Part shown: positions 10,549 to 58,652 of the stretch, piece after piece | Layout of the letters: each line of letters begins with the position of its first letter | How positions within the stretch are numbered: position 1 is the stretch's first letter | NCBI GenBank assembly: GCA_002269645.1 | Contig: NIVC01002787.1 | Location: 76,537-140,536 of the forward strand | Source of the DNA: Macrostomum lignano | Taxonomy: Eukaryota | DNA length: 64,000 nucleotides | Direction: 5' to 3' | The notes under the pieces: model-generated | Database searches by the model: none | What the model saw: the letters and a program-made list of their open reading frames with translations, nothing else | What the model was told of the DNA's origin: nothing | Made by a program: the position numbers and the translations under genes

Positions 10549-10643
10549 AACAAAAACTTATTGAGACTCTCGGGTATATAAGCACCAGCCCGGATCATCT
10601 GCAAGCGCCCGTATCTGCAAATTTTTCTAAACAGACAAGAGAC

Positions 10644-13074: not shown

Positions 13075-13081
13075 ACTGATA

Positions 13082-14699: not shown

Positions 14700-14719
14700 T
14701 TTTTGTCCTAAAAAAATAT

Positions 14720-16006
14720 TTAAACTTTACTGGATGAATTGTTGATCATGTTAAGCTTCACCTTCCTCTCAAATGCATAGATAATGTACAAGTCCACGGG
14801 TGTTGCGACAGTCCTCTCAATGTTAGTCACGATATTCACAGGGCTGTTATCAGTAGGCATTTGTCTGGCAGACACATCAGCGCCAAACATCGGATATAGA
14901 GTTCCATATTGAAGAGCAGTGATAGCAATTCCATTGTTCTCTTTCACAGCCAAGTCGACCAACTCGCTGTAAAATTTGCTAATCTTGTTCTGACTGAAAT
15001 CTCCATTTTGTGGCAGTGCAGGGTAAAGATTATCACTGATTTCATGCTGAATGGACCGCACGTCTCCATGCATGTAGCGTATAATGCTATTTGGGTTTCT
15101 CATGTTAATAATGATATACCTTGGATTGCTGCATGATCCCTCTTTAATGCAGATGTTTGTTCTAGTTTCGTTTCGCTCATCTCGACACATGTAGGCTGTG
15201 TATGCAACATCAATGTCCTTCTCTATTGCCTTGAGATAATCCGCTTTTAGTGCAGTCTTTGGCTCAATGACTTCCAAATACAGCTCGATTCCGGTTAGCT
15301 TCACCTCCATCCTTGTGTGGTCCGCCCCAGTCCACAACACTCTACTGCGATCATCTCTAGTCATCCTAAAGGTGTAGCTAAAGTTACTAGTCAGTCGATT
15401 AAATGTATTACAGAATCCACTCATGAATCTCAGTGGTACAAATACATCAACAGACCGATACAGCGGGTTCTTAGCAGCATCATCAGCACCTTGCAATGCA
15501 TAGTTGTATCTCTTCTTCCTCTTTTTATAGCCACTGTCATTGGTGTCTCCTTCTTTTTCATCTGCAATAAAACCCGCACCACTTCCCAACTGAATAAAAT
15601 CAGGATTCTCGATCAAACAATGAGCGTCATAGACAATTCCAAAGTTGGCGATTCGCTCCAACTCTGTGCTCCCATTCGATACACTAAACTCCTTGAACAT
15701 GTACGCCCAAAAGTTACTGATCAGAGCCACATCCGCATCATGCTTGTCAACGTTAGCACGAGCCGCATCCGCACCACCTTTTGTCTTGAATTGAAATGTC
15801 ATATGGAAGCCGCTCTTAAGACTGTGCACACTAACCAGAGACGAACATCCATTGTATGTAAATGTCAGTGTTTGGCCAGGACCAAGATTAGTTTCATTCT
15901 GATTTTCCTGACTGGGAACTCTTACCTGAGTCGCTTTGATTGTGCTATCATCACTCAAAATAGGCTTGTTAATTTTGTAGAAAACTGGTGTCAGTGGGTC
16001 GTTCAT
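14720..16006 (-). CDS. MCP: P1 major capsid protein (double jelly-roll type), 428 aa, intact
   Basis: Size, synteny with the penton, and C-terminal PRYIII and LYPMFGADVS motifs typical of Polinton MCPs. Confidence 0.85.
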   Translation of the reverse strand: MNDPLTPVFYKINKPILSDDSTIKATQVRVPSQENQNETNLGPGQTLTFTYNGCSSLVSVHSLKSGFHMTFQFKTKGGADAARANVDKHDADVALISNFWAYMFKEFSVSNGSTELERIANFGIVYDAHCLIENPDFIQLGSGAGFIADEKEGDTNDSGYKKRKKRYNYALQGADDAAKNPLYRSVDVFVPLRFMSGFCNTFNRLTSNFSYTFRMTRDDRSRVLWTGADHTRMEVKLTGIELYLEVIEPKTALKADYLKAIEKDIDVAYTAYMCRDERNETRTNICIKEGSCSNPRYIIINMRNPNSIIRYMHGDVRSIQHEISDNLYPALPQNGDFSQNKISKFYSELVDLAVKENNGIAITALQYGTLYPMFGADVSARQMPTDNSPVNIVTNIERTVATPVDLYIIYAFERKVKLNMINNSSSKV

Positions 16007-16036
16007 TTTTTAACTAAAAATAAAATAAAATAAGAA

Positions 16037-17241
16037 ATGAAGCGAAAAAGTACACAGCAGATATCTGAATTGGAGAAGCTAGCACAAGCAGAGAAACGAG
16101 TTACCGGGCTAATAAATAAGGAGCAACAATCCTACAATGAGTTTGTCCAAGCAGCCACAGAGTTTCATAAACCCGGGTATGGAGAAGCTAAGAAAAATAT
16201 TGATCAGGTTAAGAAACTATCGACGACATACAGGAAACCCAAGTGCAAAAGGTTTTGGGCAAAATTCCAGAAGCACCACAGATACAGCCGCAACCACAAC
16301 AACCACAACCACATCAGTCCCAAGTAAAAGTGACAGATAACATTTTTGGACCAGTAGAGCGTGTCGAACATGATGGGAAATATGTATTTGGAATAAGTAT
16401 GTGGAGAAAAAACATTTATAATGAACCAGTGGAATATTATATCGACATAAATAAGGAAAATATTTCTGTTGTCAAAGGCTCAGAAACAATGAAAATTCCT
16501 TTCACAGACACCTTACTGACTTTTATGACCAAGAACCAAGAGAAAATCTCCGAGAAGCAGCTAAAGAACTACAGAAATCTAGTGACTTTTTCTCTTGTTA
16601 GAGATATAGAAATACTAAAGGTCCCAGAAGTTCTGAAACACATGTACGATAGCGGTGTCAACCTGACTAAATTCAAAAAGTACAACACTTTAAACAATGG
16701 TTCGATTTGCCAGATCAGGCGGAAGTCATAAAATATCTAGAACAACAACAACAGCAACAACAACAACCACAACACAGCAACAACCACAACCACAGCAACA
16801 ACATTTTACAGAAGTACTCAGGCAACTGGAAAATGCAGATCCGACTCAAGTAGCTAAATATAAAAATGATCACCCAGATGCCTGGCAACACTTAGAACAA
16901 CACTCTCCAGATCGAATGAAAGAATCAAGCAAAGAGTTTTCACACCTCAACAAAGACAGGCACCGCATGACAGTTCCATCTCTGAAAGTGAGCAGTCTTT
17001 TGCATCACCTCCCCAGCAGCTACAAGCCCAACCAACTCCACAACCCAAGACCAACCGCCCTCAACAGGAAAAGGAATTTCTGAAATCTACAAGCGAGTAG
17101 CGGTTCTTCTAGGAGCGGCAAAGACCGGAATGAAAGATGAAAATAGAAAAGAATTTGTCAACATCCTGGACAAAATGATGGAAAAGAATATACTGACAAA
17201 GGGCGAGAGAGCTTCTGCTTTCGCGGTTCAACAAAAAATAA
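16037..17241 (+). CDS. P1 poly-Q putative core protein (several frameshifts)
   Basis: Fragments match the intact 403-aa ORF at 53630-54841; C-terminal GKG-I/M...KRxAVLLGAAKTG...EFVNILDKM motif seen in Polinton proteins. Confidence 0.75.
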
Positions 17242-17257
17242 TTTATTTCAAGTAAAA

Positions 17258-17647
17258 ATGCCGATTATTTTTGGGAAAGACGTGGACAAATACTATGACA
17301 AAAAGGAACTTAATCTCATTAAACGCGGATCTGGACTTTTCCCTGCAGGCCACTATCCAAGAAAAGAACGCTCAGGGAACGGTCTTGCTGATTTGATCGC
17401 TCAGGGGGCCAAGATTTTTAAGATCATTGGAGAGAACAAAGAGAACATCAAGAACGTTGCCGAAGCGGCTGGCAGTGTAGCCACAGCAGCCAAAAAGATA
17501 AAGGATACTGTAACACCTAAACAAGAGATTCAGCCTCCACTGGCCCCGCTGGCTCCATTGGCCCCAAATCCAGACAGTGTGGACCCTGCAGTCTATGACA
17601 AGATGAGAGCTAGCATTAAAAAAGGAAGTGGTTTCAAATTTGACTAA
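17258..17647 (+). CDS. P1 small basic protein with three GxG-hydrophobic motifs (putative core protein), 129 aa
   Basis: KRGSGLF, RSGNGLA, KKGSGF; conserved in P2 and P4. Confidence 0.8.
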   Translation: MPIIFGKDVDKYYDKKELNLIKRGSGLFPAGHYPRKERSGNGLADLIAQGAKIFKIIGENKENIKNVAEAAGSVATAAKKIKDTVTPKQEIQPPLAPLAPLAPNPDSVDPAVYDKMRASIKKGSGFKFD

Positions 17648-17690
17648 AGGGTACTTTCCGAGGGTACAAGAAATGTAAAGGTACAAGACT

Positions 17691-17794
17691 AGTCCCAAAA
17701 TGACACATCTAAGTCCCAAAATGACACATCTAAGTCCCAAAATGACACATCTAAGTCCCAAAATGACACATCTAAGTCCCAAAATGACACATCT
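17691..17794. repeat. 21-bp tandem repeat upstream of the ATPase (5 units; 6 units at 35814-35937 and 53064-53190)
   Basis: Unit agtcccaaaatgacacatcta. Confidence 0.95.
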
Positions 17795-17831
17795 TCTAAA
17801 TTATTTATTATTAAATTTCATCATAGAAAAA

Positions 17832-18632
17832 ATGGACTTTTCAAACGACTTCAATCCTCACTGGACGCGTAATCAGATTAAGTTTTCTCATCATGAGTCA
17901 ATCCCGAGTCACTTCAGATGCATTGTTGTTGGTTCATCAGGTTCAGGTAAAACATTCAGAGTCTTTAACATGCTTCTTAGACCTGGCTTTATCGACTATG
18001 ACACTCTGCACATCTACTCTCCCACACTGTATCAAGATGAGTATAAAATGCTGATTTCTGGATTGCAAAACAAACTGAACAAAGAGGACATTATTCAATG
18101 TTTTAATAACCAAATGAGCCTTCCCAGTAACCCAGAAATTGTAGCTGCTGAATATGCAAAGCACCTCAAAGACAATGAAAAATGGCAGAACATTAAAGTG
18201 TTCACCTATGGAGATCCACAGGCTGATCCAAAGACCAAACTTCTACCCCAACCAGATGAGCTAGAAAAGGGGAGAAAGCATTTGATCGTCTTTGATGATT
18301 GTATGACAGGCCCACAGAAGCAGATAGAAAACTATTTTACAAGAGGGCGACATAACAATTGTAATGTAATTTACATTGCACAGAATTGGTTCGAGCTCCC
18401 GAACAAAACAATTCGTGGGAACTGCAATCTGATTCTCCTGTTTCCAACCATTCCACAGGACAGGTTAAAAAGATTTTACAATGAGGTCATTGCGCCTGCC
18501 TATTTTATAAATCCAACAAAAAACTCAAGCAGAAAGATTTCACAAGAGGAATTCGTTAATCTTTGCTATGACAAGTGGAATCAGCCTTACCAGTTTGTGA
18601 TTATCAGCAAAGAAAAAAGAACTGTAATTTAA
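17832..18632 (+). CDS. P1 A32/FtsK-HerA-type genome packaging ATPase, 266 aa
   Basis: Walker A GSSGSGKT, Walker B LIVFDD, A32-type RGRHNNCNVIYIAQ. Confidence 0.95.
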   Translation: MDFSNDFNPHWTRNQIKFSHHESIPSHFRCIVVGSSGSGKTFRVFNMLLRPGFIDYDTLHIYSPTLYQDEYKMLISGLQNKLNKEDIIQCFNNQMSLPSNPEIVAAEYAKHLKDNEKWQNIKVFTYGDPQADPKTKLLPQPDELEKGRKHLIVFDDCMTGPQKQIENYFTRGRHNNCNVIYIAQNWFELPNKTIRGNCNLILLFPTIPQDRLKRFYNEVIAPAYFINPTKNSSRKISQEEFVNLCYDKWNQPYQFVIISKEKRTVI

Positions 18633-18648
18633 AATTTGCTATTAAAAG

Positions 18649-19381
18649 ATGTCGATAAACTTTGCAGGTGAATCCATTTCTGGCAACAGCGCTCTTACAT
18701 CAGCTCAGATATCCATCCTTGACAGGCGATATATCAACAGCGACGAAAAGATCCCAGAGATCAAACTGAATAAAAACAGACTGAAACAATTAGAGCGCTC
18801 CATGCACCAGTTGCAAATCAACATGGAAGATCTCAGGCTTAAAGTAGCTAGGCAGAAGTTTGAAAGTGATAAGCTTTATGCGCCGTTGTTAAACGCAACT
18901 AATGAACTAAGGTCAGAAATAACTTCGGCGGTCTCGCTAATCAACGGCTTGAGATCATCAGTTAATCTTCTGGGAAATTCCATTGATAGACGGATGCGTA
19001 TTCTTGAAGGAGGAGTTTTCACAACGCACAGCTAAAGTGAATAATTTAGAAGAGTTCATGAACCAGTCAACAGCGTTGCATAATAGAATTAAAGAAAACG
19101 TCGCAACCAACACATGTAAAGTGAGGAATTTAGAAGAGTTCATGACTCAGTCAACAGCGTTGCATGATCAAATCAAAGTAAGAATTGATGCAATTAAAGT
19201 CTTTGTAGATTTAGTTTTTGCCGAATGGCAGAAATCGGTGAGAAGAATCGGTCGTCTTGAACGCTTGCATAATCTCAAAAACATTGACGCTGAAGAGGCA
19301 CCACAGACCACAAGGGAAACAAGTGATCCAACCGACTTGTTTGAGATCATGCGTAGAATGGAGCTCACAGATAATGAATAG
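18649..19381 (+). CDS. P1 coiled-coil protein (putative fibre), frameshift near 19025
   Basis: Heptad-rich with an internal ~27-aa repeat KVxNLEEFMxQSTALH; joins ORFs 18649-19035 and 18983-19381; homologue in P4. Confidence 0.7.
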
Positions 19382-19491
19382 GCAGATTCAGAGACCTGTT
19401 GCCGTCACTGCAGACGAAGCAATCAACCGTAAAACAAATCTAACCACCACCAACTAGTTGCGGATTTTTTTTTTAAAAAATTCCCTAAAAA

Positions 19492-20142
19492 ATGGATGCT
19501 CAAAATTCTCTTTATGATCAGAATGCTCCCACAACACCTAGTGCACCTAGTGCACCCCAATATGAGCAACAAAAACTCTACCCCGTCATTACTTGTAACT
19601 CTCAACAGTTTCGACTGGTGGAGATTCAAAAAATGCGCGATGATCTTGAAAAACATATTTTCCACAACACAAAGAAAGTTAAGCGCTATGACTGTAAATT
19701 TTTCGACTACAGCAATATGATTCTAGGATCTGTGTCTGTTCTATCTGGATCTGCTGCAGCTGTCTCAACGTTGCCAGTCATCACAGTCCCAATCGCAATA
19801 CCGCTCGGCTCTGTGGGTGCTGCATGTGGACTTATTTCAGCAATTACTGGAGCATTAGCGCGAAACAGGCGAAAAAAACTAAAGCAGCTACAGGAGAAGC
19901 AAGTAAAAGAGAAAGGGGTGCACACTTCAATCATAGGGTACATTTCAAGGGCAATCGAGGATAAGTTCATTTCAGAGGATGAGTTCAAAACCATTCAGGA
20001 TCTTTATGAACAATCAATTCGAATGAACTTGAACATGGTCGGTACTGATGACATGAGTCAGCTGAGGAATGAACTCGAGAAAGTTCTTCAACATTATGTG
20101 GAAAGAAGGACAACGAGAAGTACAACGAGAAATGCACAATGA
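19492..20142 (+). CDS. P1 membrane protein with hydrophobic hairpin, 216 aa
   Basis: LYP...QQFRL N-terminus, two Gly/Ala/Ser-rich hydrophobic helices followed by RNRRKK; a common Polinton gene type; homologue at 48370-49071. Confidence 0.85.
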   Translation: MDAQNSLYDQNAPTTPSAPSAPQYEQQKLYPVITCNSQQFRLVEIQKMRDDLEKHIFHNTKKVKRYDCKFFDYSNMILGSVSVLSGSAAAVSTLPVITVPIAIPLGSVGAACGLISAITGALARNRRKKLKQLQEKQVKEKGVHTSIIGYISRAIEDKFISEDEFKTIQDLYEQSIRMNLNMVGTDDMSQLRNELEKVLQHYVERRTTRSTTRNAQ

Positions 20143-20146
20143 ACCC

Positions 20147-20547
20147 CTATGAAACACAGCCAAGAATAATTTCCTTGTAGGTCTTTCGTGTTTTGGTCAT
20201 TGCATACAAAACAGTCATGCACAGCTCACCGCAAATATCACTGCTAAGACCTTGGAGAATAAAGTCTGAGCGATAAATTTTTTTATTCTTTTTTCCCTTC
20301 ATATAATTTCTTAGCTCTTCTGGTACTGCCGTCCCATAGCTATCGAAGTAATAACACTTGTGCTTGCGATCGGGATCAATCACCCAGCAAACCCAATGAG
20401 ATCCTGGCTTATCGGTGGTGTCAAAGTTCATGATGCCGCATTCCTTTCTTAGAGGAAAATCAGGCAGAGTGTCCCTCATAAATATTCTCTAAAGTTTGGG
20501 ATTTCCAGTTCGTTAGCGAAATCTTCGAGAAAATTATTTGTTGTCAT
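20147..20547 (-). CDS. PRO: P1 adenain-like cysteine protease, frameshift near 20487
   Basis: GSHWVC (His), YFDSYG (Asp), QGLSSDICGELC (Gln/Cys). Confidence 0.93.
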
Positions 20548-20600
20548 TTTTTTTGAGGTTTATTAAACTTTCTCTTAAACCTAAACCCAACCTCCACCTC

Positions 20601-23600
20601 CTAAACCCAACCTCCTAAACCTAACCTCCAATGCCCGAACGGTAGACTGTTGATATTGTCATCAAAAATGAATCTCTTGTTATCTGCACCTGACAGTCCA
20701 ATCTTCTCTTGCTGAATTGTGTGAATAATATGGTTTTTGATTGTAGCTTTGAGAACTCATGTGATGTTTTTTGTTGCAATTCAAGGCGTCTCTGTATTCA
20801 GCTTCATTAATTTCCTTCCTAACTACACGTTTCGGAATTCCCTTTGATTTTTTGATTGGGTCTGACGACTCACATTTTACAAAATAGGACTTTGCTCTCA
20901 ACCCAATGAATTCAGTGATTATGTCACCAGCAATCTCGTCCTTCATTTTCCCAATCACTTTCTTGTTAGTGGCGTCAAACACTTGATCGCCATTCTGTGT
21001 CCTGCAAGATTCATCATACTCAGACAAGTCAAACAAATCTTTTTGCTGCAGCATGTCCTGATAAATGTCTTCTGTTTGAATGTCCATAATAAAACTGTCT
21101 GTGTCAGTGTACAAGAGTTTCATTTTATCCTTGTACTGCTGCTTCATGCCATAGAAGAACTGGTACATCAGACGTTTTGATTCGTCGAGAACAGTGACAC
21201 CTGTATAGATCGGCTTGCGCAGCGTCACCTTGGTTTTGTAAAATATGATCACACCTAAGTAGCTATTAAAGATATGGAGTTCTTTGAATGTTGGCTTTGA
21301 CATATTTGCCTGAATAACATCAGGCTCTGATGAGGTAACAAGTTTCAGGTTTGTTCTTTTCCGCTCATTCTCAAGAGTCTTGCCATAGACAGAGTTGTTG
21401 GCCAACTTAAAGAGGTTCTTGTCAAAGTCGTTGGTTGCTTTGGTCCTAAACTGGGTGTTTTATCAATGTAGGGTTTCATCCACGCTTCCTCTGTAAATGT
21501 AAGAGCCCGTGAACTTTGGTGACCCTGCAACCAAGTGAGATAAAATACTGAAGCAGTTTGTAATGATTTTGTAACGTGTCTTGTTGTTTAGATTCTGTGT
21601 TAGTTTCTCTGTATGTTCTTTTTCTGTTCCTGACAGGTGCCAAGTTCCATTATTATCATTGGGAGTTTCGATTATTTTCGGGCACTTGATGTTCTCTGGG
21701 AAGGGTGGAAAGTCAGAGAAATAGTCGTGAAGCTCTGGTGGAATGTAAACATCAACCTCATAAATGGCAGCCAATGAAAAGTCCCATTTGAATTCTGATG
21801 AGGGTAGCCATCGAAAATCTCTAACTGGAAGATCTTGACTCATCGCCCACCCGTAGAGATTATTAGCGTCCAAGTAAGTAATGTAGTTTGAGGGCTGCTC
21901 CTTATTGTAAGATTCAATGTAGGGATTGTTTGCTTTTGCATACCTGTTAACGCAAATTGAGATTCCCCCTCGTTTGACGATTCGACAAAATTGTACATGT
22001 CAATGTCTGTAAGAAGTTCAATGTACCAATCTGGATCTTGATCCCATTTCATTTTAAGCAAAGATTCCCAGCTAGTGGCAGGCAGAGACACATAATGTGC
22101 TGGATCGAGGCCATATGCTGTGTACCAGGTGTCTCTGAAGGTTTCAAACACATCGGCCAGCAGAAACACATCTGTGTAGAGGTAAAGCAGGTGATACTGG
22201 AAGAAGTTTTGACAATTAAAGTAATTATAGACATGCTTCGCGTGCTCATAGTCTTTGTCAGAGATTCCAGAGTCTGTTAGCTTTGAAAAGAACTTCTCCT
22301 GTGGTGGTAAACCTTCTTCAAATACATGATACCCAGTAATATTTTCATAGGGGTAGAAGCCTTTGGTTCTCAGGAGTTTAAATGATTCATCAGTGTTGTA
22401 AATTTTACTTGCAAATATCTTTGTATATGTACATTGTTCATCTTTTAGATTCTTGCTTAGTTCGTCTAGACTGGCAGCTAGAAATTGATATGAATCCTTC
22501 AGTCTTATTTTACCTGTACCCGAATTATCCTGTTTAATATCAACACACTTAAACTTCTCCTTGTTCTCTGCGATGCAATCAAGGTGTATGTCTGGAATCA
22601 TGCCGATTTTTTCAACTATTAAATGCATGTCATAGTTCTTTGCGTTGTGACAAAATATCGTTAGATCATGAATGTTCGATTTTAGCTTTAGATTACAGGT
22701 GTTATGCGCTGCACCTCTAAATTTCCCAGTAAAGTGGCAGTAGTCCCTAACAATGGGGTTTTTAACATCAGTGCAAGTTAAGTGTTTCCTGCAGATGTGG
22801 CAATGAGTTGCTGATAGGAAATTGCTTTCATCCTCCTCAGACATACTTATTGGAACAGGTTGAAGGGTGCTAATTACTCTTTGCAACTCTAACATTCTGG
22901 CAATAAACTGCTCCACACACTGCTCTCCAAAGAAATAATTATACTCAACAAGTCCTTTTGTATTAATAAAGGCATTTGCTACTGAATTGGGGATATGTTT
23001 TTGAGTTGGAGTTTGTTTTTGAGTTTCTGGCATGATTGAGCATTCGAAATCAGCAAATACAACAAATGGGAGCTTCTCCATCTTGTGATAGTTCTTAAAC
23101 CGGAGATACTTCTCTTCAGCTGTAGGAAGAGAGCAGTTGGTCAGGTGATCCTCGCATGATAATTCATGCTCTGCTAGTTTTTCAAAGCGTTCAGGTCCAC
23201 TGTAATGCTTAAGGCACAAGCGGCAGATGGCAACAGCCTCGTGATGATTATTCAATGCTTGTGAATGAGTCTTGAAAGATCTTTAATCCAAACATAGTGA
23301 GCCTCCTCTAGTAAATTACCAATCACTAGAAGATCCACTTCAGTCCGCCTTTTCCCCTCAGGATCTAAAACGTCTTTGCTACATCTGACCGGTTGAACTT
23401 TCTCAGTTTTTTCACTCCACTCAAAGACTGTGATTCTAATTTTGTTATTAAACACTTCTTCTAGCTTTGGGATCTGAGAGATCGCCAAGCCTCCTTTGTC
23501 AAACCTGATTCCCTTCTTTTCGCATTCGATGAGATAGTAGTTAAAATAGTTTTGATAATTTGAGGTTCTTTCAGGGTGGTGAGGTACCTATCATAAAAAG

Positions 23601-24428
23601 TGCAGAAAGAACTGCCCATAGAGCACAGCAATTGTCTTTATTTTTAACATTTATGCAAGCTTTTTTGCCGGCTAGCTTATGCTGGAGCTCTATATAAGAG
23701 GAGGCTTTAAGTGGGTCATATTTCATGACCATGACAGTCGCTCTTTGAATCCCTCCTACGACCCATCCGGAACCTCTGGATGTAAACGCTTCAATTTTCT
23801 TATTGACATCTTGAAGGAAAGGATCCAGTGTGTCTGTAGGGGTGAATGGCTTTGCCTTTGTTGTCATGTAATACTCGAGATGCTCAGTGGGTTTTGCAGG
23901 CATATAAAATGCAATCTTGAATGATATCTGTAGTTTAAAGGTCTTGCGTGTTTTGAGTGTGTGATCAACAACTGATTGGATGCTGTCTTTATAGTCGTAG
24001 ATGTTTGCGGTGGTATCCTTAATTGGGATTGTGTACTCTATGTAATGTTCTGTAAACTTCCTCTGTGCAAAATTAATCTTTTCAATGGCAAGCTCCGACT
24101 CTTTTAAATGGATTAATTGCTCTAATTTCTCTTGTTCCTGCTTATTTTGTGGGTACTTTGCTTTTTCACCAGTGAGAGTTTCGTATTTGTTAACTAAGTT
24201 GCGACTCCTCTCTTGGTGTTCCTTTGCAGAATTTTTTATAGGCGCATACTGGTTGAATTCTAATTGATTGATGATTTCCAACTGTTTTTCATAGCTTCCC
24301 AGGTGACCAGGGTCGGTGTTAAACTTTTGTTTACATGCTTCTCTTAGTAAATTACTTTTGTCTTGAAATGAGACGCCTTTTGAAAAATATTTGTTGACTA
24401 AATCTTTTGCTGGATTAGCTTTTGGCAT
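20601..24428 (-). CDS. pPolB: P1 protein-primed family B DNA polymerase with terminal-protein/OTU-like N-terminus (about 1280 aa when frameshifts are bridged)
   Basis: FADFEC (ExoI), HNAKNYD (ExoII), YLDANNLYG, KLANNSVYGK, YTDTDS; several 1-nt frameshifts. Confidence 0.97.
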
Positions 24429-24553
24429 TTTTTTCTCTAAAATAAAAAAAAAACTTTGAGGGAGACCACCCTGATAGAAAAGTTGAACTGTTTTTACATC
24501 CTATAAGTAGCGCTAGGTTTATGAAGCTGGATAAAGTGGGGTTTTAAACCTCA

Positions 24554-25000
24554 TCACATTCGCATTATTGTAAACCCAGCATTGTGCAGTGTCATGATGG
24601 CTTTGACAATGTCAGACTTGCTTATAGAATTTTCATTCTCACAATCATCACGATCGGGGCAGCCCTCTCCTGCCTTAATTGTTATACCTTTGTCTCTTGC
24701 AATCTTTTGCAATTCCAGCTGGTGGGCTCTATCATTCCCAGCTTTAACAGCAGTTGCTACACCTCCAGCTACACCACCTGCGGCACTTACAGCGCCTGCA
24801 ATGATCGGAATAAGAGCTGCTAATGGTAGGATTCCTCCTGACTTTTCATCTGTGATGCTGTGTCTTTGTTCATTACACTGAACTATTTGCTGCGTGGGAT
24901 CGATTTTTACTTTGACACCTTTAATTGATAAAAGACCTGGTTTCTTTGATTCAATGATATTATTGAGTTTATTGAGGGTTCTAGTTTCAATCTTTGTCAT
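24554..25000 (-). CDS. P1 adenovirus pX/mu-like protein, 148 aa
   Basis: SGGILPLAALIPIIAGAVSA resembles the adenovirus pX C-terminus MRGGILPLLIPLIAAAIGA (recalled, not searched). Confidence 0.75.
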   Translation of the reverse strand: MTKIETRTLNKLNNIIESKKPGLLSIKGVKVKIDPTQQIVQCNEQRHSITDEKSGGILPLAALIPIIAGAVSAAGGVAGGVATAVKAGNDRAHQLELQKIARDKGITIKAGEGCPDRDDCENENSISKSDIVKAIMTLHNAGFTIMRM

Positions 25001-25169
25001 TTTTTATTTTAATATTTGAATTAATTTCTGTGTCAGCTGGTATCACTAGGAGTTCAGCTCTAGTGAATGACCGCGTGGGGGATTTAGGGTTAAAGGCTTG
25101 AGATAAAAAGTAATACTCTTCAGAGTCGGAGGTAAAATGTCTGTCTATTTTATGCACATCAAGGCTGAA
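24987..25169 (-). pseudogene. INT: P1 integrase 3' remnant
   Basis: YFSLDVHKIDRHFTSDSEEYYFLSQ...ELLVIPADTEIN matches the C-terminus of 42474-43511. Confidence 0.9.
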
Positions 25170-25197
25170 ATATAGAGATATAGAGATTATAGAGAAA

Positions 25198-25443
25198 TAT
25201 AGAGATTTTCCTGAGGAGAAGAATCGTTGGGACAAAGAAATGCTTAGGAGACTAGACAATATAGGGGCTTCAAGCGGGTGGAAGGAACCGATCGCTCGGA
25301 AGCTAGTTAAAGCTGTTATTTTTAGTAAGGCAAAGTTGGGGTTGGGGGTTGGTTTGGGAGAAGGGGTGGGCTTTGCGTTGCACGCACCAAGTAAAGAATT
25401 AGGAAGACTGTTGAAAGAGCTGGGGGTTGAGAGAGCAGAATGA
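25198..25443 (+). pseudogene. P1 PLA2-protein 3' remnant
   Basis: YRDFPEEKNRWDKEMLRRLD...ARKLVKAVIF matches the C-terminal half of 41988-42443. Confidence 0.9.
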
Positions 25444-25574
25444 TTCAAGTAAGAAAATTCAGCTGGATTAGCGGGTGTTTGGGAGAAGAGAGAACCGGGA
25501 GGGGGATTTGCATTGCACACACCAAATAGAGACTGCGTACATCGACAGTGCATTTCCCAGTATTTGAGGTGGTT

Positions 25575-25664
25575 TTCCGACAGTTTTCCGACAGTTTTCC
25601 GGCAGTTTTCCGACAGTTTTTGGTTGCGACAAATATCCGACAGTTTGTCGGATATTTGTCGCAA
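25575..25664. repeat. 12-bp repeats (ttttccgacagt) and a perfect 19-bp-arm hairpin (25624-25664)
   Basis: ttgcgacaaatatccgaca-gtt-tgtcggatatttgtcgcaa. Confidence 0.9.
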
Positions 25665-25798
25665 ACAAAAACTCATTATCTACTAATAGTAGTCCTAGCA
25701 TATAGTACTCCTATATAGTACTCCTTATAGTAGTGGGTGTTGATTTCAACGGTGAAGAGTTCGTATTGACGTTGATCATTGAGAGAATGTAGGAAAAA

Positions 25799-26038
25799 TT
25801 ACAATTGCTTAATGATTTCTGCAAAGTTATAGTAGCTGTCGTAATCTTTTACGTAGGTTACTCCATACTTATGAAACCAGTGTCTTTAGAGAGCTAGATT
25901 AATATTAGGGACATTGATATCAACACCGGGCCAATATTTTCTCATGTATTCGCTGCATTCTAGTCTGCATTGGTACTTGGATTTGTACAATGGATGAGGC
26001 TGAGTATAATAAGAACCTGGAGAGACAACTGGAAACAT
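25799..26038 (-). pseudogene. Terminal microprotein copy with premature TAA (P1 right)
   Basis: Same ORF as 57049-57288 but CAA>TAA at 25886-25888. Confidence 0.8.
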
Positions 26039-26585
26039 TTTTATTGAGAATTTAATTTTTTTTCAAAGGGTAAGGACCCTGGGTTTGGGGATTTAAAGTT
26101 TTAGGGATCTGGTTTCAACGCTTCGGATTGAATGTGGGGAGAAGAATGCAGATTATTTTCTGATTGTTTCGAAGATGCTATGGGTGGATGTTGGTGGATT
26201 ATGTCTGTGTCAGTGAGCATAACAGGTGTTAGTGGACACCTGTTATGCTCTGATTCTGTCAGGGATAATGCTCTGATTCTGTCAGGGATAATATGGATGG
26301 ATTTAATGGGATTATGGAGGACGTTTTGTGAGCGAGTGCGACCCCCCCTTTTTCTGATTCTGTCGGGGATAATATGGATGGATTTAATGGGATTATGGAC
26401 GATGTTTTGTGAGCAGGTGCGACCCCCCCCTTTTTTTCTGATTCCGTCAGGGATAATATGAATGGATTTAGGTGGATTATGGAGGAGGTGAAAAATTTTG
26501 TCCCAAAAGCCCCCTCATGCCTTCTACTAAATATATTGTGCATAAATTGCAGTGCACTGCAACCAACATCTTTTTGGTAAACAAA

Positions 26586-30436: not shown

Positions 30437-30539
30437 TGTACACGTGCATTGTACGTGCGCATCCATACTGTAAAGGCGATAAATGGTAATGTACATGTAC
30501 ATGCATTGCGGAGGCTATATGAACACGTCTATATACAAG

Positions 30540-33500
30540 TCAGAAGTAGAAAAAGTCTTTTCTGGGGTTGAAGTGCACTCGTTGTCCACTCCTGGTTCGA
30601 GTTGGCGCCTCCTGGGTACTGTCCTCACTGGCTGTTGTCGACGGTGTCGTCTGTTGAGTCGCCTGGTCTTTTTTCTCCCTTTCGTTTGTCGTCGCCTTGT
30701 CCTGGGGTGCCTTCCGAGGGGTTCGGCTGCTAGGTGGCGTTTGGACTGACTTTGATTGCTGTAGGCTTGCAGAACGGCATGGCTTCAGACGGTCGATTGA
30801 GATTGCTTCCTCTTGTCCGGCTCGTTTCTCGACTATGAAGAACTTGGGTGTGCGCCGGACGACGGTGTAAGGTCCTGAGTATGGCGCTTCGAGTGGCTTT
30901 AGAACTCTGTCTACGCGGATCCAGACTTTCTCGGCCGTCCAAAGGTTTTTCGGGGTGTAGGTCTTGTTGACGATCGGTTGCCGTGGCTGGTGTTCAAGAA
31001 GTTGATCGAGGTTCAACTGGATCGTCGCGGGGTCTGAAGCGTTGACTAGGACTCGAGGAAGCATCGGATTTTCGCCTGTGAGCCTGGTGAATGGGCTGAC
31101 ACCTGAATCATCTGGTGCGATGTGCATCGCAAGCAATGCTAGAGGCAGGTTGTCAAGCCATGAAGCTCCTCGCGCTTTGAGCATGGTCTTGAGAGTGCGA
31201 TGTGCTCTCTCCACTTTTCCGTTGCACTGTGGATGGTACGCCGTGGTGCGTAGCCTATGGAAACCAACAGCTGACGAGAGGATGTGGAAGAGCTCCGCTT
31301 CGAATTGAGGTCCGCGATCCGTAATGACGTAGAGTGGGACTCCAAAGCGCGAAATCCACGTTGTGATGAAGGCTGTTCCAGTACTCTGGGCTGTGACTGT
31401 CTCGAGTGGTGCTGCTTCGAGCCAACCGGTGTTCCTTTCGATCATCGTGAGAAGGTACCGGGGCGCAAGGCCACACTGGACGTCGTGCTTCTTGTCCGGG
31501 AATGGAAGAGGTCCGACCACGTCTAGATGTATGGTTTCGAATCGATTTGATGGAGGGTTGAATGCAGAGCTGCCAGCCGTCGTGTGGCGGTCTACTTTGC
31601 AGCGTTGGCATTCCTCGCATGTCCGGCAGTATTCCTTGATCTCGTCGCGCATGTTATGCCAGAAGTAGCGACTGGAGATGAGATTGGCCGTCTTTCGGAA
31701 TCCATAGTGTCCGAGCTGGTGAAAATGTCGGATCAGTGCGTGACGCATTGAGACAGGGACGACTGGTCGTGGGTAGCCTGTGGAAGTCTCGCACAGGACA
31801 CGTTAGTCGTCTCCCAGTGTCTCCCTAGTATCGGCAGTTGTCTCCCTCTGTGAGCCCGTCGAGGGCCTGCTGTGCGGCGATCGCTGGCAGATCAGTTGGC
31901 GAGTCGTCTTGCGTGATGGCTGCGATGGGGTTGTGCTCAATTCTCGACAAGGCGTCGGCGACGATGTTGTCCGCTCCGCGGAGGTATTGAATGTCGGCGA
32001 CGTACTCGGAGATGACGCTCATATAGCGCTGGTTTCTGTCCGATTTGCCATAGGAGTTTTGCCGGAAGGCCTGCTCGAGTGGTTTGTGGTCCGTGAAGAC
32101 CGTTACATGTCGACCTTCGATCAGGTTCCGGAAGTGGAGTACGGCTAGGTAAACGGCAAGAAGCTCACGGTCGAATGCCGAGTATGTCTGCTGTGTCGAT
32201 GAGAGTTTCTTGCTGTACATTCCGAGCAGAGTAGTGCTGTCTCCGACGGTTTGATGTAAGGCGGCGCCGACACAAGTTGCCGACGCATCCGTGACTAGTT
32301 GATATGCCGAGCAATCTGGGTCTGGGTGGCTGAGTAGAATTCGCTCGGTCAGTTTCGACTTGAGTTCCTCGAATGCTGCCTGATGTGTGTCGCTCCATTT
32401 GAAGGATCTGGGAGACCGTAGTGATGCGGTGATGAGGTCCTGCAACGGAGCGGCGGTGTCAGCGAAGTTTGGAACGAAACGTCTGTAGAAGCCAATCACG
32501 CCTAAAAATCGTCGTAATGCTGCAGCATCGCGTGGTGCTGGCCACTTCTTGATGGTCTCGACCTTGGATTCCAACGGGCGGATTCCTGCTGCCGACACTT
32601 GATGCCCGAGGAAGTGAATCTCGCTTTGCAGGAAGACACATTTTGTGAGTTGAACTTTCAATCCATGGTGGGCCAGGCGTGACAGGACGGCTTCAAGATG
32701 TTGAAGGTGTTCCTCCTCGGTCTTGGAGTAAACCAAGAGGTCGTCGAGGTATGCGATCACACCTTGCAGACCGCGAAGTACCGAGTCGATGAAGCGTTGG
32801 AAGGTCTGCGCTGCATTTCGGAGACCGAACGGCATGCGGGTCCACTCAAACAAACCGAAAGGAGTGATGATAGCCGTTTTCGGGATGTCTTCTTCGGCAA
32901 TCGGAATTTGATGGTAGGCTCGGACGAGATCAAGTTTGCTAAATGTCGTTGCACCATGTATATATCGAGTGAAGCTCTGAATGTGTGGTACGGGATAGCT
33001 GTCGGCTTTGGTAGCCTTATTAAGAGCACGGTAATTGCCGCAAGGACGCCACTTACCGTTGGGTTTCCCATCCGACTTTTTCGGTACCATGTGAAGTGGT
33101 GACGCCCATGAGCTGTTGGATGGCCGGATGTAACCGGCGTCGATCAATTGCTGGAATTCCTCTTTGGCGACGGACAGCTTCTCTGGGTGAAACTGACGAG
33201 CTCGGGCATGTACCGGTAGCTGGTTGCCGGTGTCGATCCGATGGACGGTGTCGTGTTTTACCGCGTCTGCAGGCGGCAGTCGACCCCCTCCACGTAGGTA
33301 AAGGTGTCTTGATAGCGGTCGATCAGCTGCTTGATCCGCGGATCGCAGTTGGCTGGATATGCTGGCGTGACGGTAAACGATGAGATGCTGAGAGTGGAGA
33401 CTGGCAATTCTGGAGTGTGGAGTCGAGTTGTTGGGTCCACCAGTCGTCTTGCCTTGCAGTCTACTAGCAGTCCGAAGTGGGAAAGGAAGTCGTAACCGAG

Positions 33501-34711: not shown

Positions 34712-35117
34712 TGTAGGATTGCGAAAATAATTGAGGCGTGAAACGCGGTGGTTCGTTTGCTTTAATTTTTCTTTGATTGTTTTCCGTGTGGAAAAGAATA
34801 GAGAGACTTGAGTATTTGCGTGTTAGGGTGCTGTATATTTATATACGTGTTGATAGAACATTCCGGAATCCGGAAAGTTCGAGAAGCGGTTTTTAGAAAG
34901 GGGTGCGCGGGATTTCAAAATACCAAATATAGAAAGTGCGTGTTTACGCTGAAGTTTCTAGAATATAAGTATTGTACTTACAGTACGCTATCTTATACCG
35001 TATACGCGCGTTGTTTAGTTGGAGAACTTTCTAGAATATGAAGATTTAAACATGTTATAGAATATTATAGAAAATAGAAATACGCTATAATACTTATAAT
35101 ATAGTGAATGCGCTACA
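34712..35117 (-). repeat. Gypsy 5' LTR, 406 bp, with four heat-shock elements and a TATA box
   Basis: TGTAG...CTACA termini; HSEs at 34855-34869, 34872-34886, 34950-34964, 35023-35037; TATATAAA on the minus strand at 34838-34845. Confidence 0.88.
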
Positions 35118-35748
35118 GCAACTCCCCAGCAGCTACAAGCCCAACCAACTCCACAACCTCAAAACCAACCACCCAAATCTGGAAAAGGAATAGCTGAAAT
35201 CTACAAGCGAGTAGCGGTTCTTCTAGGAGCGGCAAAGACCGGAATGAAAGATGAAAATAGAAAAGAATTTGTCAACATCCTGGACAAAATGCTTGAGAGA
35301 AAATACATCAAAAAGAGGGCGAGAGAGCTTCTGCTTTCGCGGTTTAACAAAAAATAATTTATTTCAAGTAAAAATGCCGATAATTTTCGAAAAAGACATT
35401 GACAAATACTATGACAAAGAGGAACTTAATCTTATTAAACGTGGATCTGGACTTTTCCCTGCAGGCCACTATCCAAGAAAAGAACGCTGTGGGAATGGCC
35501 TTGCCGATTTGATCGCTCAGGAGGCCAAGATTTTTAAGGTCATTGGAGAGAACAAAGAGAACATCAAGAAAGTTGCCGAAGCGGCTGGCAGTGTAGCCAC
35601 AGCAGCCAAAAAGATAAAGGATACTGTAACACCTAAACAAGAGATTCAGCCGCTGGCCCCGCCGGACCCGTTGGCTCCACTGGCCCCAAATCCAGACAGT
35701 GTGGACCCTGTAGTCTATGAAAATATGAGAGCAAGCATTAAAAAATGA
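35118..35748 (+). pseudogene. P2 poly-Q gene 3' fragment (to 35357) and GxG protein (35374-35748; GGA>TGA removes the last motif)
   Basis: Matches P1 17005-17647. Confidence 0.85.
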
Positions 35749-36518: not shown

Positions 36519-36758
36519 ATGTTTTCAGTTGTCTCTCCAGGTTCTTATTATACTCAGCCTAATCCATTGTACAAATCCAAGTACCAATGCAAACTAGAAT
36601 GCAGCGAGTACATGAGAAAATATTGGCCCGATGTTGATATCAATGTCCCTAATATTAATCTAGCTCTCCAAAGACACTGGTTTTATAAGTATGGAGTAAC
36701 CTATGTAAAAGATTACGACAGCTACTATAACTTTGCAGAAATCATTAGACAATTGTAG
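36519..36758 (+). CDS. Terminal microprotein, 79 aa (P3 left)
   Basis: Intact homologue of 12522-12758. Confidence 0.75.
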   Translation: MFSVVSPGSYYTQPNPLYKSKYQCKLECSEYMRKYWPDVDINVPNINLALQRHWFYKYGVTYVKDYDSYYNFAEIIRQL

Positions 36759-37031
36759 AATGTCGTTACAATACGCTTTAAGACTGTAAGACTGCAAGCG
36801 GAATGGGTATGGCAGCTGTTTCTTGTCATAGCGCGAGTGGCGTGTGCAGCATAGAGAAAAAAGCTTTTGCCCAGCTCAAGCCTTAAACGCCCATTTAGTT
36901 CCTTGTTTAAACCCCCAACCTTCTCAACCGCCCCCCCCCCAACTCTTTGAGTAGTCCGTTTTCCCAGGCAACTCCAATCAACCATTAATAGAAAATACTG
37001 CCTATAATTAGAAAATCTGCGGGTTTCGCTT

Positions 37032-37098
37032 ATTCTAGAAAATTCTAGAATAAAAAGAAAATCCATGGATTCCCGCGCCCACACCAATGGTATATAAA
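37032..37098 (+). promoter_or_regulatory. Heat-shock-type promoter: 4-unit HSE, CCAAT, TATA
   Basis: aTTCt aGAAa aTTCt aGAAt (37032-37051), CCAAT (37084-37088), TATATAAA (37091-37098), ATG at 37216. Confidence 0.8.
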
Positions 37099-37215
37099 CA
37101 GCCGATTCACACCGCCCCTCGCCTCACCCTGCCTGCTCCGCCTCGCCTCGCCCCGCCTCAACTCGCTGAGCCAGCAACTTCTTATTTTTGACTAGCTTAA
37201 TCTCTGGATCTTGCC

Positions 37216-37839
37216 ATGGATGAAGAAATGCAAGCAGGCGACAACATTTACATTGAAAACCTGGAGAACTTCATCAAGGCGGTTTTTTCTAGTAAAGATC
37301 TTGACAACTGAAATGTTTGGGCCGATAAATACAATGTAATTGCTCGGTCACCAATCTTGAAGCTAACTATCAATGGACGGCTAGCGAAAACTACCGACAA
37401 GCAATCACAAATCAGCAAGGCTCTGGACGAGTTGTGCACGGCCTACAAGACCAACAGTGAGCCTGTGCCAGTGCATTCTCTAGAAGAATTTATGCAGGGA
37501 ACATTTACGATCGACGCAGTGCTTGTACAGATTGCCAACCTTCATAAGCTAGTTGAACGGCATGGTAAGCATGGATTTGCAAACGGTCTACAGCTCGGCA
37601 GGATCTTTCTGAGAATGGAGCGGGTTCTCAGTAAGGAACAGTTCAACGAGCTGAAAAGACGTGCACCGTTCACCAGCCAGTGGACCAACTTTCTGATGAA
37701 ATTGGCTGACCAAGCTGAGAAATATCCGGTGCTACAAAGATCTGCAATGTCCCTGCACAAGCTGAAGTCGATGATTGCATACTTGCCAGAGGCCCTTGCG
37801 ATGCTGCAACAGGAAGTGGACGAAGGCTTGTTGTTTTGA
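37216..37839 (+). CDS. P3 cargo protein, 207 codons with one in-frame TGA (37309-37311); DUF3102-like helical domain
   Basis: ATG 37216 is in frame with ORF 37357-37839; LQLGRIFLRMERVL...F...S..TNFLMKLA...YP pattern. Confidence 0.65.
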
Positions 37840-37932
37840 CTTTTAAATTAGCAATGTATTGTTTATTTAGCAATTCATGAAGCTATAATAATAGCAAGTT
37901 ATTCTTGGATAGTTTTTTATTACTAATATTGA

Positions 37933-38972
37933 CACCAACCTCAAATTTTGAAACCACTGGTTTCATTTTCTGAGGTGGGTGTTTGATTAAAAGAGCAAAT
38001 TTGCTTGAGACAGTGTAGACAAATGTTTCTGCTGGAAGCAGTGCAGAACTCAGATCACCCACCTCAAAATTTGAAACCAACGGTTTCATTTTCTGAGGTG
38101 GGTGTTTGACTAGGAGAGCGTAGAAGAAAACGGAGGGATCAACCAGAAGGTTGTACCTTGTAGAGGGTAGACGTGAGTTCTAAAAATAAAACCCATACAA
38201 TGCGTTGGGAGAGCGTAGAAGAGATCACCCACCTCAAAATTTGAAACCAGTGGTTTCATTTTCTGAGGTGGCTGTTTGACTAAGCTCGGGAGAGCGTAGA
38301 AGAAAACGGAGCGGCTAGTTGTGGAGGCTAGAAAAAGAAAGACCCCTCCCGCCCGGCTCAACCCTCAACCCTCTGCAATTCTCTTTTTTGGCTTTGGCGC
38401 TGCACTGCACAGAAGTGAATTGCAGAGGGAGGGTGGGTGGAGAGAGAAGGGGGGACTTGTGGCGGAATGCGCGGACTGCATGCAGTGAGTGGCAGGGCGG
38501 GTGAGAACTGGATAGCGCAGCAGTGTAGACCCACCTCAAAATTTGAAACCAGCGGTTTCATTTTCTGAGGTGGCTGTTTGACTAAGCTCGGGAGAGCGTA
38601 GAGTTAGTTGCGGAGGCTAGAGAAGCAGTGCAGAACTCAGATCACCCACCTCAAAATTTGAAACCAGTGGTTTCATTTTCTGAGGTGGCGCGGCGCCCCT
38701 GTGCAAAGAGAGTTCAGTGCTCTGGCCCGGACTGTTGGGGAAGGGAAAGGGAGAGGAGCTCAAGGGGAAGGAGATTTCAATACAACGGAAGACTAAAAAT
38801 TCCCAGGCGCCCCTCTACCCCCCAGCGCGAGATCGCTAGTGTTATGTTTGACTAAAAATAGAATGAGCTCGGGAGAGCGTAGAGCTAGTTGCGGAGGCTA
38901 GAGAAGCAGTGCAGAACTCAGATCACCCACCTCAAAATTTGAAACCAGCGGTTTCATTTTCTGAGGTGGCTG
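37933..38972. repeat. Six dispersed ~49-bp imperfect palindromes
   Basis: CACCCACCTCAaaattTGAAACC-nnn-GGTTTCAttttcTGAGGTGG(G/C)TG at 37933, 38056, 38226, 38530, 38643 and 38924. Confidence 0.95.
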
Positions 38973-40785: not shown

Positions 40786-41553
40786 ATGTCTGACTTGTCT
40801 GTCACACCAGATCTATCTCTATTCTCTAAAATTTTACAGCTAAATCAGTTAGCAAAAGATAACAATAAACACGAACTACTCTTATCTGAAGATGATTTAA
40901 TTCATTTAAAAGTTACATTAGATTGCCCCTTAGTACCTAGTTGTGGCAATTTAGAAGATCGATCAAAAAAATTAAATGAAGAGCGCATGGATGTAGATGA
41001 GGATCAAGATCAACCAGCAAGAAAGAAAGTAAAAGTAAAGAAGCAAAAACTACGGCCAACTGGTGAGACGCTTCATCAATATCTTTGCGCAAAAGTATTT
41101 GAATTTGAAGGGGTCGATGAATTTATTCACCCCTATTCTATTGTTGATACAAATATGCCGTTATCTGTAGAAGAACAACTACAGACGGCAGTCACAAGTT
41201 TAAAAAGATGTAATAATCGTATGCTCATTGCCACATACATCTGTGGTGTATGGTTTAACCACAACGCAGCGAAATATAGAATAGAACATCCTGAAGAAAC
41301 TGTTAAATGTAAAAGTTGTGATGATCAGGTTTTGGAGTTTTTGCAACGACATGGGATAACATATGCTAAAAGCACTATTAGAAAAATGTTGTCTCTTAGT
41401 AAAACATTACATGATTATCCTCGTTTTTTTAAGCTAAATATAACATTTGAGGAACTTTACACCTTAAAAAATGATATTGAAGACATGTTAATGTGTTCAA
41501 ATAAATATAAAACCTATTGGAGCATGGGTGTTATTCAAATAAAAAAAGAATAG
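40786..41553 (+). CDS. P4 cargo protein, 255 aa, NLS-like PARKKVKVKK; distant homologue of the P3 cargo protein
   Basis: Clean AT-rich ORF; G..F...(S/A)..T..(K/F).(L/M).L......YP motif shared with 37216-37839. Confidence 0.8.
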   Translation: MSDLSVTPDLSLFSKILQLNQLAKDNNKHELLLSEDDLIHLKVTLDCPLVPSCGNLEDRSKKLNEERMDVDEDQDQPARKKVKVKKQKLRPTGETLHQYLCAKVFEFEGVDEFIHPYSIVDTNMPLSVEEQLQTAVTSLKRCNNRMLIATYICGVWFNHNAAKYRIEHPEETVKCKSCDDQVLEFLQRHGITYAKSTIRKMLSLSKTLHDYPRFFKLNITFEELYTLKNDIEDMLMCSNKYKTYWSMGVIQIKKE

Positions 41554-57288: not shown

Positions 57289-58163
57289 TTTTAGAGAAAA
57301 TTTAATTTTTTTTCAAAGGGTAAGGACCCTGGGTTAGGGGATTTAAAGTTTTAGGGATCTGGTTTCGCCGCTTTGGATTGAATGTGGGCCCCATGGGGAG
57401 AAGAATGCAGATTATTTTCTGATTGTTTCGAAGATGCTATGGGTGGATGTCGGTGTCAGTGAGCATAACAGGTATCAGTTGACACCTGCTCTGATTCTGT
57501 CAGGGATAATATGGATGGATTTAATAGGATTATGGAGGATGTTTTGTGAGCAAGTGCGGCCCCTCCCCTTTTTCATGATTCTGTCAGGGATAATATGGAT
57601 GGATTTAGGTGGATTATGGAGGATGTTTTGTGAGCGAGTGCGACCCCCCTTTTTTTCTGATTCTGTCAGGGATAATATGGATGGATTTAATGGGATTATG
57701 TTCGAAGTTTTTGGGGTAAGTGCGACCCCCCTTTTTTTCTGATTCTGTCAGGGATAATATGGATGGATTTAGGTGGATTATGGAGGACGTGAAAAATTTT
57801 GTCCCAGAAGCCCCCTCATGTCTTCTACTGGCAGGTGTAATCAATTATTATTACTATTTACTTACGATAGGCATTCTGTCTTCTGCTGCATGCTATGTTG
57901 TTGCCACGTTGCTTACCACATGAAAAACTATAATAAACTAATAAACTATATAGCGACTATAATCTGTCGCTTCAGTCCTTCAGTTGTTTATCAATGTAAA
58001 CTGTTCAGCAGTCTTTCTAATTCTTTATTTGGTGCGTGCACAAAGGAAAGCACGCGTGGAACTTGTACATACGCAAAAGCTGCGCTCCCTCAGCAAATAG
58101 CAGTTACGCCACCCCTTTTCAAAATGCAGCTGTTGCGCTTGGCTGCGAATAATCCTTCCCAAC

Positions 58164-58652
58164 TCAAACGCCCCTCTCTACCCCCAACTCTTTCAGCAGT
58201 CTTCCTAATACCTCGTTTGGAGCACACAAAATAAACCCCGCTCCCGAGCACTCCGCGCACCCGCCCTCTCTTCCCAAACACCCACCCTCAGCGCCCACCC
58301 CCAACCCCAGCTTTTTCTTACCAAAAATAACCGCCTTGACTAATTTCCTAGCAATCGACTCACGAAATCCGCTTGAAATCCCCATATTGTCGAGTCTCCT
58401 GAGCATTTCTTTGTCCCAGCGATTCTTCTCCTCAGGAAAATCTCTATATTTAACGTCGTGCCACATGCAGACAGAGTCTAGCTCGTTCACAGGCTCATGC
58501 CCAGGATTTGGGTTGTCGTTACCATCCAGCTGTATTTCAAGTGGATTCAAAGGCCCGCAATATTTGTACCCGGGAACTGTCCAGCCTTTGTTTGGATGAG
58601 GAAGCTTTTCTATCAGTCCATGTGAATCTATTTTACCACCAGAGCGTTGCAT
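58164..58652 (-). CDS. P3 PLA2 protein, 162 aa
   Basis: PGYKYCGPLN, DSVCMWHDVKY. Confidence 0.92.
   Translation of the reverse strand: MQRSGGKIDSHGLIEKLPHPNKGWTVPGYKYCGPLNPLEIQLDGNDNPNPGHEPVNELDSVCMWHDVKYRDFPEEKNRWDKEMLRRLDNMGISSGFRESIARKLVKAVIFGKKKLGLGVGAEGGCLGREGGCAECSGAGFILCAPNEVLGRLLKELGVERGV

Follow-up and report, generated by a model that had tools for sequence, protein, structure and literature searches.

Transposable elements whose transcription is driven by HSEs have already been described in several lineages. In Macrostomum, the induction of Ty3/Mdg4 LTRs that bear one to four canonical HSEs is about 250-fold and requires these HSEs; four of six HSE-bearing LTR families are strongly induced by heat and two are not, and mutation of the HSEs abolishes induction, according to the available part of PMC12801592, which also describes the hijacking of HSF by the Ty1/Copia element ONSEN of Arabidopsis. 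Since two of the six families are not heat-induced, the presence of the motif does not guarantee induction. Helitrons of Caenorhabditis also carry HSEs and hijack HSF, as stated in the accessible portion of PMC6927752. Among Polintons (Mavericks), one family of Drosophila subobscura shows a slight heat response (|log2FC| < 1; available text of PMC10627563), core-gene expression of coral polintoviruses clusters by colony rather than by treatment (accessible part of PMC11131425), and the trigger of nematode Mavericks has been hypothesized to be ‘some environmental perturbation’ in the available portion of bioRxiv 2022.07.12.499685, a paper whose main text does not contain the word ‘heat’. The literature searched yielded no account of a Polinton carrying an HSE, with most subscription papers and supplements lying outside its scope. 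Here we describe a Polinton cargo gene, real and polymorphic, with an HSE–TATA promoter in a 64,000-nucleotide stretch of Macrostomum lignano DNA (hereafter, the window). On balance, we find it probable that the locus constitutes an accessory HSF-responsive cassette in the cargo slot of a Polinton subfamily, in which a compact HSE–TATA promoter is coupled to a gene for a small all-helical protein.

Self-comparison and the analysis of element ends reveal the window to be a nest of one Polinton family. The nest is dense (8388-64000), comprising two complete elements, at least three fragments and six TIRs, with Polintons lying inside Polintons. The carrier of the cargo gene, P2, is inserted at the start of the ATPase gene of an older Polinton fragment and is in turn split by the complete element P3, the insertion of which was clean, since GGCAGG is duplicated on both sides (TIRs 94.6% identical). 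After P3, P2 resumes at 57836 with its PLA2, integrase, pX and PolB genes, the last of these frameshifted and split over three ORFs, and its right end lies beyond the window, so that its left TIR is the only P2 TIR within the window and its ATPase, capsid and protease copies would fall outside. The P2 segment 58292-64000 is 95.9% identical in DNA to 42083-47781 of P3, where ORFs match rve, Adeno_PX and DNA_pol_B_2 in Pfam. It is through these P3 copies that a protein-primed PolB (PF03175, E 7e-16) and an rve integrase (E 7.5e-9) are recognized, and a PLA2-like domain on P2 itself (PF08398, 58164-58649) is accompanied by the pX-like gene identified through Adeno_PX on P3. The sibling Polintons contribute matches to Pox_A32 (E 4e-6), to a DJR-like capsid profile (E 3e-5, below the cut-off) and to Peptidase_C5 (E 0.004, on a fragment); P1 seems to have lost most of its integrase and PLA2. 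P2 fits a Polinton/Maverick of the alpha-adintovirus type. The main features of the locus are collected in the table.

Table. Features of the cargo locus, its carrier P2 and the neighboring Polintons, in window coordinates
Feature	Position	Strand	Remarks
P1, complete Polinton	11945-26528		6-bp TSD AAATAT; AG...CT ends, long TIRs
Left TIR of carrier P2	36070-36757	+	starts AGTAGA; 82-93% identical to the window's other five TIRs
Short decayed piece resembling PLA2 gene 3' end	36908-36964	-	local alignment to 58150-58205
Four-unit HSE	37032-37051	.	aTTCt aGAAa aTTCt aGAAt, all units perfect and alternating
CCAAT	37084-37088	+	abuts TATA box, 2 nt apart; function doubtful at such spacing
TATA box TATATAAA	37091-37098	+	39 nt downstream of HSE
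GC-rich tract, probably 5' leader	37100-37175	+	72% GC
Predicted start site	~37115-37125 (~37120)	+	placed by TATA spacing
Intronless orphan cargo gene, 207 codons, all-helical protein	37216-37839	+	stop (TGA) at codon 32, 37309-37311
Six copies of imperfect ~50-nt DNA hairpin in GA-rich spacers	37932-38970	.	copies at 37939, 38062, 38232, 38534, 38649, 38930
Stretch that we take to be SINE-like, target of P3	39250-39534	+	tail resumes at 57836
P3, nested complete Polinton splitting P2	39535-57829	+	6-bp TSD GGCAGG on both sides; AG...CT ends, long TIRs
Unrelated 255-aa orphan ORF in P3 slot	40786-41553		no HSE, no TATA, no Pfam match
PLA2-like gene of P2	58164-58652	-	PF08398, E 8.8e-13
Integrase, pX-like and frameshifted PolB genes of P2	58683-63925	+	co-oriented with the heat-shock promoter; element runs past window end

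The location of the gene in a Polinton, as put forward in the earlier note, is supported by the left TIR upstream and the integrase downstream, and 2,543 nt separate the cargo stop from the integrase ATG once P3 is subtracted. The region between left TIR and integrase behaves as a Maverick cargo slot: in two of the four public sequencing runs compared below the TIR end continues into several different sequences, the TIR-to-gene joint is present in other copies, and the cassette is found in neither of the two complete siblings of the window (P1 and P3). The P1 slot holds no relative of the cargo gene; the ORF in the P3 slot and ORF 10644 were considered as relatives and rejected, no relationship being detectable. 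Orphan ORFs 10012 and 10644 (9670-11396) are each preceded by a TATA-containing block of 260 nt, which is duplicated (88% identity), and the end of ORF 10012 is duplicated upstream of ORF 10012 itself.

The alignment of the decayed piece upstream of the promoter to the PLA2 end of P2 reaches a score of 52, attained by none of 300 shuffles (the alignment to the P3 copy of PLA2 is not significant, at 11 of 300), and loose contig ends in all four runs read like a PLA2 3' end at this position. This remnant suggests that the cargo block was added by recombination. On the other side of the gene, the hairpins of the downstream array show folding z-scores of -4.1 to -6.5 (three of three copies folded), contigs link the 3' end of the cargo gene to the first hairpin in three of the four runs, and the stretch matches no Rfam family at the gathering score, its 11 Rfam matches all falling far below. 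The array may represent the end of another mobile element.

With codon 32 translated as X, the cargo protein comprises 207 residues. A search of 1.84 billion representative proteins returned five matches, four of which are genuine relatives (27-44% identity); P0005 was dropped from the alignment, its similarity being confined to a 34-residue repeat. Relative P0002 aligns over residues 3-206 with 44% identity and spans the codon-32 stop, so that the long frame is the gene, and the cargo gene can be regarded as truly protein-coding, as had been claimed. One relative is annotated as a hypothetical protein of Macrostomum lignano and the others are nameless. Word-indexed protein searches yielded nothing with the single sequence, only three relatives already found with the profile, and none among longer proteins. 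Metagenome and viral contigs contained no loci encoding relatives of the cargo protein or of the integrase, and searches for the cargo protein in Pfam, PHROGs, NCBIfam and PDB sequences were blank or at chance level, with Pfam at E 10 giving no match for any of six proteins. The protein was also rejected as an adintovirus Oncoid, a category defined by LxCxE/CR1 motifs with paired CXXC in the available part of PMC8502044, given that its translation contains a single Cys, no LxCxE and no CXXC.

Structure prediction from the single sequence was unusable (pLDDT 42); a model built from five sequences is all-helical (pLDDT 75), and Foldseek retrieves nothing like it from PDB or BFVD at E <= 0.001. 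The best Z in a wide structural search was 6.3, with most matches covering just a helical hairpin. Against the C-terminal domain (residues ~92-207), the Raf1 N-domain (Z 5.6, rmsd 4.5, 95 aligned) and Spo0J (Z 5.1, rmsd 5.1, 101 aligned) remain at background level for helical folds, and USP8 aligns over the whole domain (Z 5.8, rmsd 5.6, 94 aligned). The language-model neighbors DUF3102 and Plasmid_parti_N clusters (0.88-0.90) provide a weak HTH lead that agrees in part with the Raf1 and Spo0J alignments; with Translat_reg and a closterovirus coat protein, the neighbors span 0.88-0.95 and are mutually discordant. A DNA-binding HTH would be the best guess offered by these models, within background. 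For the ‘putative regulator’ that had been proposed, the HTH-like leads from DUF3102, Raf1 and Spo0J stand as weak indications, but the structural scores lie within background and no match exists at the sequence level.

Part of the stretch is present in 20 of 24 listed runs, from one organism, and we compared four of these runs, from four studies, using contigs only. The TGA at codon 32 does break the window copy, as suspected, and most sister contigs are unbroken there: the codon reads as something other than a stop throughout the depth of three runs and, among the variants listed, for at least 84 of 149 in the fourth. The reading frame is kept by several divergent alleles in each run, and a variant of the terminal stop is still a stop. 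Among the variants listed, a single coding indel occurs (depth 23/252, in one run) versus seven between the TIR end and the ATG. With the break codon left out, nine of the 21 coding changes listed are synonymous, where 6.1 would be expected (P 0.13, not significant), as are four of the five beyond codon 90. The window copy itself is decayed, as attested by the codon-32 stop, the nested P3 and the frameshifted PolB.

These observations bear on an alternative that we judge unlikely, yet worth serious attention, according to which the gene arrived together with its promoter, both taken up from the host or from a different mobile element, such as the one that may be represented by the downstream hairpin repeats, and form a heat-inducible passenger of no use to the Polinton. 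The cargo of nematode Mavericks in the same slot is host-derived (accessible part of bioRxiv 2022.07.12.499685), the named relative is a Macrostomum lignano protein, and the PLA2-end remnant and hairpin repeats on either side suggest a spliced-in block. A cellular origin is harder to reconcile with a gene that is intronless, belongs to no known cellular family and has patchy relatives, and the maintenance of the frame in divergent alleles tells against a useless passenger. The promoter, moreover, shows no similarity to the neighboring HSE-rich Gypsy LTR described below (E 0.05, word size 7), and its derivation from that LTR was rejected, no shared sequence being detectable.

The motifs of the cargo promoter are real. 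The four perfect alternating nGAAn units described in the earlier note are confirmed and make up the only four-unit array in the window. Their layout was called that of a textbook heat-shock promoter, and much of the description holds: more than the three contiguous inverted nGAAn units of hsp70-like promoters are present, the array lies close to a TATA box upstream of an ORF, a CCAAT is found, and the ATG at 37216 has a strong Kozak context (GCCATGG), with 117 nt between it and the TATA box. In other respects the layout is less textbook. The GC-rich tract falls mainly in the leader, with GC-richness upstream of CCAAT limited to 18 nt at 67% GC; the CCAAT abuts the TATA box, the usual NF-Y position being farther from TATA than the 2 nt seen here; and GAGAG/CTCTC elements are absent from 36758-37215.

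A four-unit HSE has an exact expectation of 0.02 per window and appears in 3, 5 and 5 of 150 windows simulated with Markov models of orders 1-3, and the joint expectation for such an array with a TATAWAWR 20-100 nt away is about 0.001 per window, figures that understate chance in that a genome-wide scan reads many windows. The array is also a tandem doublet of a 10-bp palindrome. The window contains 70 two-unit HSE sites and 22 start positions of near-perfect 10-bp duplications, and the Markov models understate the chance of a four-unit array because slippage can build a 10-bp doublet from any of those 70 sites.

In the sister contigs, the HSE variants listed amount to a single change, at a free n position, with the cores unchanged, and the listed TATA variant stays within TATAWAWR; the commonest sister HSE allele is a perfect palindrome, and some alleles carry an extra TTC-nn-GAA pair just upstream of the HSE. 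With about eight variant sites in 120 nt, the 12 core bases would often be left untouched by chance, so that this conservation of the motif is without statistical support. A minority allele in three of the four runs has other sequence in place of 36759-37171, with the TIR end joined to 37172; the joint is seen in X5 and X2, and record 5 of X12 shows 248 unlike letters. As this allele reaches 37172 through other sequence, the gene also exists without this promoter block. The question raised in the earlier note, whether sister copies preserve both the HSE and an open codon 32, receives a mixed answer: most contigs have no stop and no core change among the variants listed, but one allele in three of four runs has different upstream sequence. 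None of the listed runs that contain the stretch is recorded as RNA. The two guessed to be RNA also cover the HSE and upstream DNA and so mark no start site; relative to the TIR, the gene has greater depth in them than in the remaining two, contig depth being unable to rank parts.

That the HSE might be incidental, the product of a 10-bp palindrome duplication beside a TATA promoter that is otherwise ordinary, whether constitutive or viral, and under no selection for a heat response, strikes us as quite improbable. The doublet structure of the array, the alleles with extra copies that show slippage, the abundance of two-unit sites and 10-bp duplications in the window and the allele that retains the gene behind a different upstream region are all in keeping with such an origin. 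So is the result of an HSE+TATA scan of IMG/VR, which identified a like pattern in six stretches, several of them AT-rich, none Polinton-like and none with a relative of the cargo gene or of the window ORFs. Against an incidental origin, 39 nt to the TATA box is the spacing that an HSF promoter needs, with the low joint chance given above, and the most frequent sister allele forms a perfect palindrome; any perfect four-unit array would, in addition, bind HSF whatever its origin. Among the IMG/VR stretches, one on a 5.4-kb viral contig (L005:4516-4562, minus strand) combines a perfect HSE and a TATA box ahead of an ORF of 481 aa whose N-terminus is rich in arginine, presumably of the kind found in the capsids of small ssDNA viruses.

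Beyond the cargo gene, no three-unit HSE was found within 400 nt of the Polinton core starts examined, and of the full set of 24 starts examined, those of the cargo gene and a Gypsy gag are alone in having one. P3 contains no three-unit HSE and P1 a single one, within a minisatellite. This 61-bp palindromic minisatellite (13071-13574) lies between the TIR and the minor capsid gene of P1 and contains that element's only three-unit HSE-like match. Two kb from the cargo locus, the 5' LTR of a Ty3/Gypsy element (34712-35118, minus strand) carries four three-unit HSEs (34855, 34872, 34950 and 35023) directly upstream of a TATA box; at the other end of the element (30439-30540), about 100 nt do not match the 5' LTR in self-BLAST (hits >=100 nt), indicating a shortened or different LTR. 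The Gypsy LTR holds four of the window's seven three-unit matches, with about one expected in the whole window. By analogy, it resembles the heat-inducible LTRs of Macrostomum and ONSEN and would be a stronger candidate than the cargo gene for direct heat-driven transposition. With four three-unit HSEs and a TATA box in this LTR, the elements of this host do collect HSEs, and because the LTR and the cargo promoter share no detectable sequence, the comparison suggests that two element classes in one host may have gained HSEs independently.

The accessory cassette that we favor could operate as follows. Under heat or proteotoxic stress, host HSF trimers would bind the four-unit array, and a TATA-directed transcript would fire from around 37120. 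Its product would most likely be a small DNA- or chromatin-binding accessory factor, a function to which the weak HTH lead points, and this factor might aid the expression or the protection of the subfamily that carries it at times of relaxed host silencing; transcripts might also run on towards the integrase and PolB genes, which have the same orientation. HSF would then be hijacked as in the HSE-bearing LTRs of ONSEN and Macrostomum, with the cassette as an optional cargo of the subfamily and not the master switch of the family. Indeed, because both complete siblings in the window are without the cassette and the core genes examined have no three-unit HSE, the cassette is accessory, not a family-wide switch.

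Last in our ranking, and distinctly unlikely, is a stress-induction switch in which HSF activates a DNA-binding regulator and this regulator, acting in trans on TIRs or core promoters, triggers excision, replication or particle production of many Polintons, since the promoter facing integrase, pX and PolB (at a distance of 2.5 kb until P3 was inserted), the weak ParB/Spo0J-type HTH lead, the environmental trigger hypothesized for Mavericks (available part of bioRxiv 2022.07.12.499685) and the slight rise of the Drosophila subobscura family after heat shock (available text of PMC10627563) have to be set against the absence of the cassette from both complete siblings, which are the autonomous elements in which it was sought, the lack of three-unit HSEs near the Polinton core starts examined and in P3, with a single one in P1, a set of only four relatives in 1.84 billion representatives, fewer than a conserved switch would lead one to expect, and the coral data, which are grouped by colony and not by heat treatment and allow no statistical test (accessible part of PMC11131425). 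The related idea of an HSF-controlled immediate-early gene in a Polinton subfamily, the HTH-like product of which, or read-through into integrase and PolB, would wake resident Polintons under heat or proteotoxic stress, we consider equally doubtful, and the analogy with prophage SOS induction drawn in the earlier note is speculative.

The same species offers HSE alleles, alternative-promoter alleles and cassette-free siblings, so that the link to heat stress is directly testable. Were nothing induced, the gene would be one more orphan cargo gene; were the switch true, it would provide the first defined host signal and switch for the exit of a Polinton from latency in an animal.

Compared with known systems, and as far as the available text of PMC8502044 and PMC6431247 goes, the carrier resembles alpha adintoviruses and Polintons in its PolB (PF03175), rve integrase, PLA2 and pX genes and in its left TIR, with candidate ATPase, capsid and protease genes in the sibling elements, and the alpha adintovirus paper mentions no heat-shock promoter (‘heat’ occurs 0 times in PMC8502044). 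The helix order of residues ~92-207 aligns weakly with the HTH domains of ParB/Spo0J, the Raf1 N-terminus and DUF3102, at Z 5-6, which is background for helical folds, and with no sequence-level match. The slot is that of the nematode Maverick cargo genes wasp and krma, a variable region of 2-5 kb from left TIR to integrase, but those genes are intron-bearing proteases and kinases (available part of bioRxiv 2022.07.12.499685), whereas the P2 cargo is an intronless helical orphan. Like the locus analyzed here, the Caenorhabditis Helitron is a DNA transposon bearing HSEs; in the accessible portion of PMC6927752 its HSEs are many and rewire nearby host genes, whereas P2 has a single compact array, accompanied by a TATA box and an ORF of its own. 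With the Macrostomum Ty3/Mdg4 LTRs and ONSEN, as described in the available part of PMC12801592, the locus shares a mobile element, canonical HSEs upstream of a TATA box and a presumed hijacking of HSF. It differs from them in that the element is a virus-like DNA Polinton, the induction is putative, and the HSE is attached to a cargo gene that is internal and optional and, being outside the terminal repeat, does not directly make a transposition template. If our reading is correct, HSF hijacking would extend from LTR elements and Helitrons to virus-like DNA elements.
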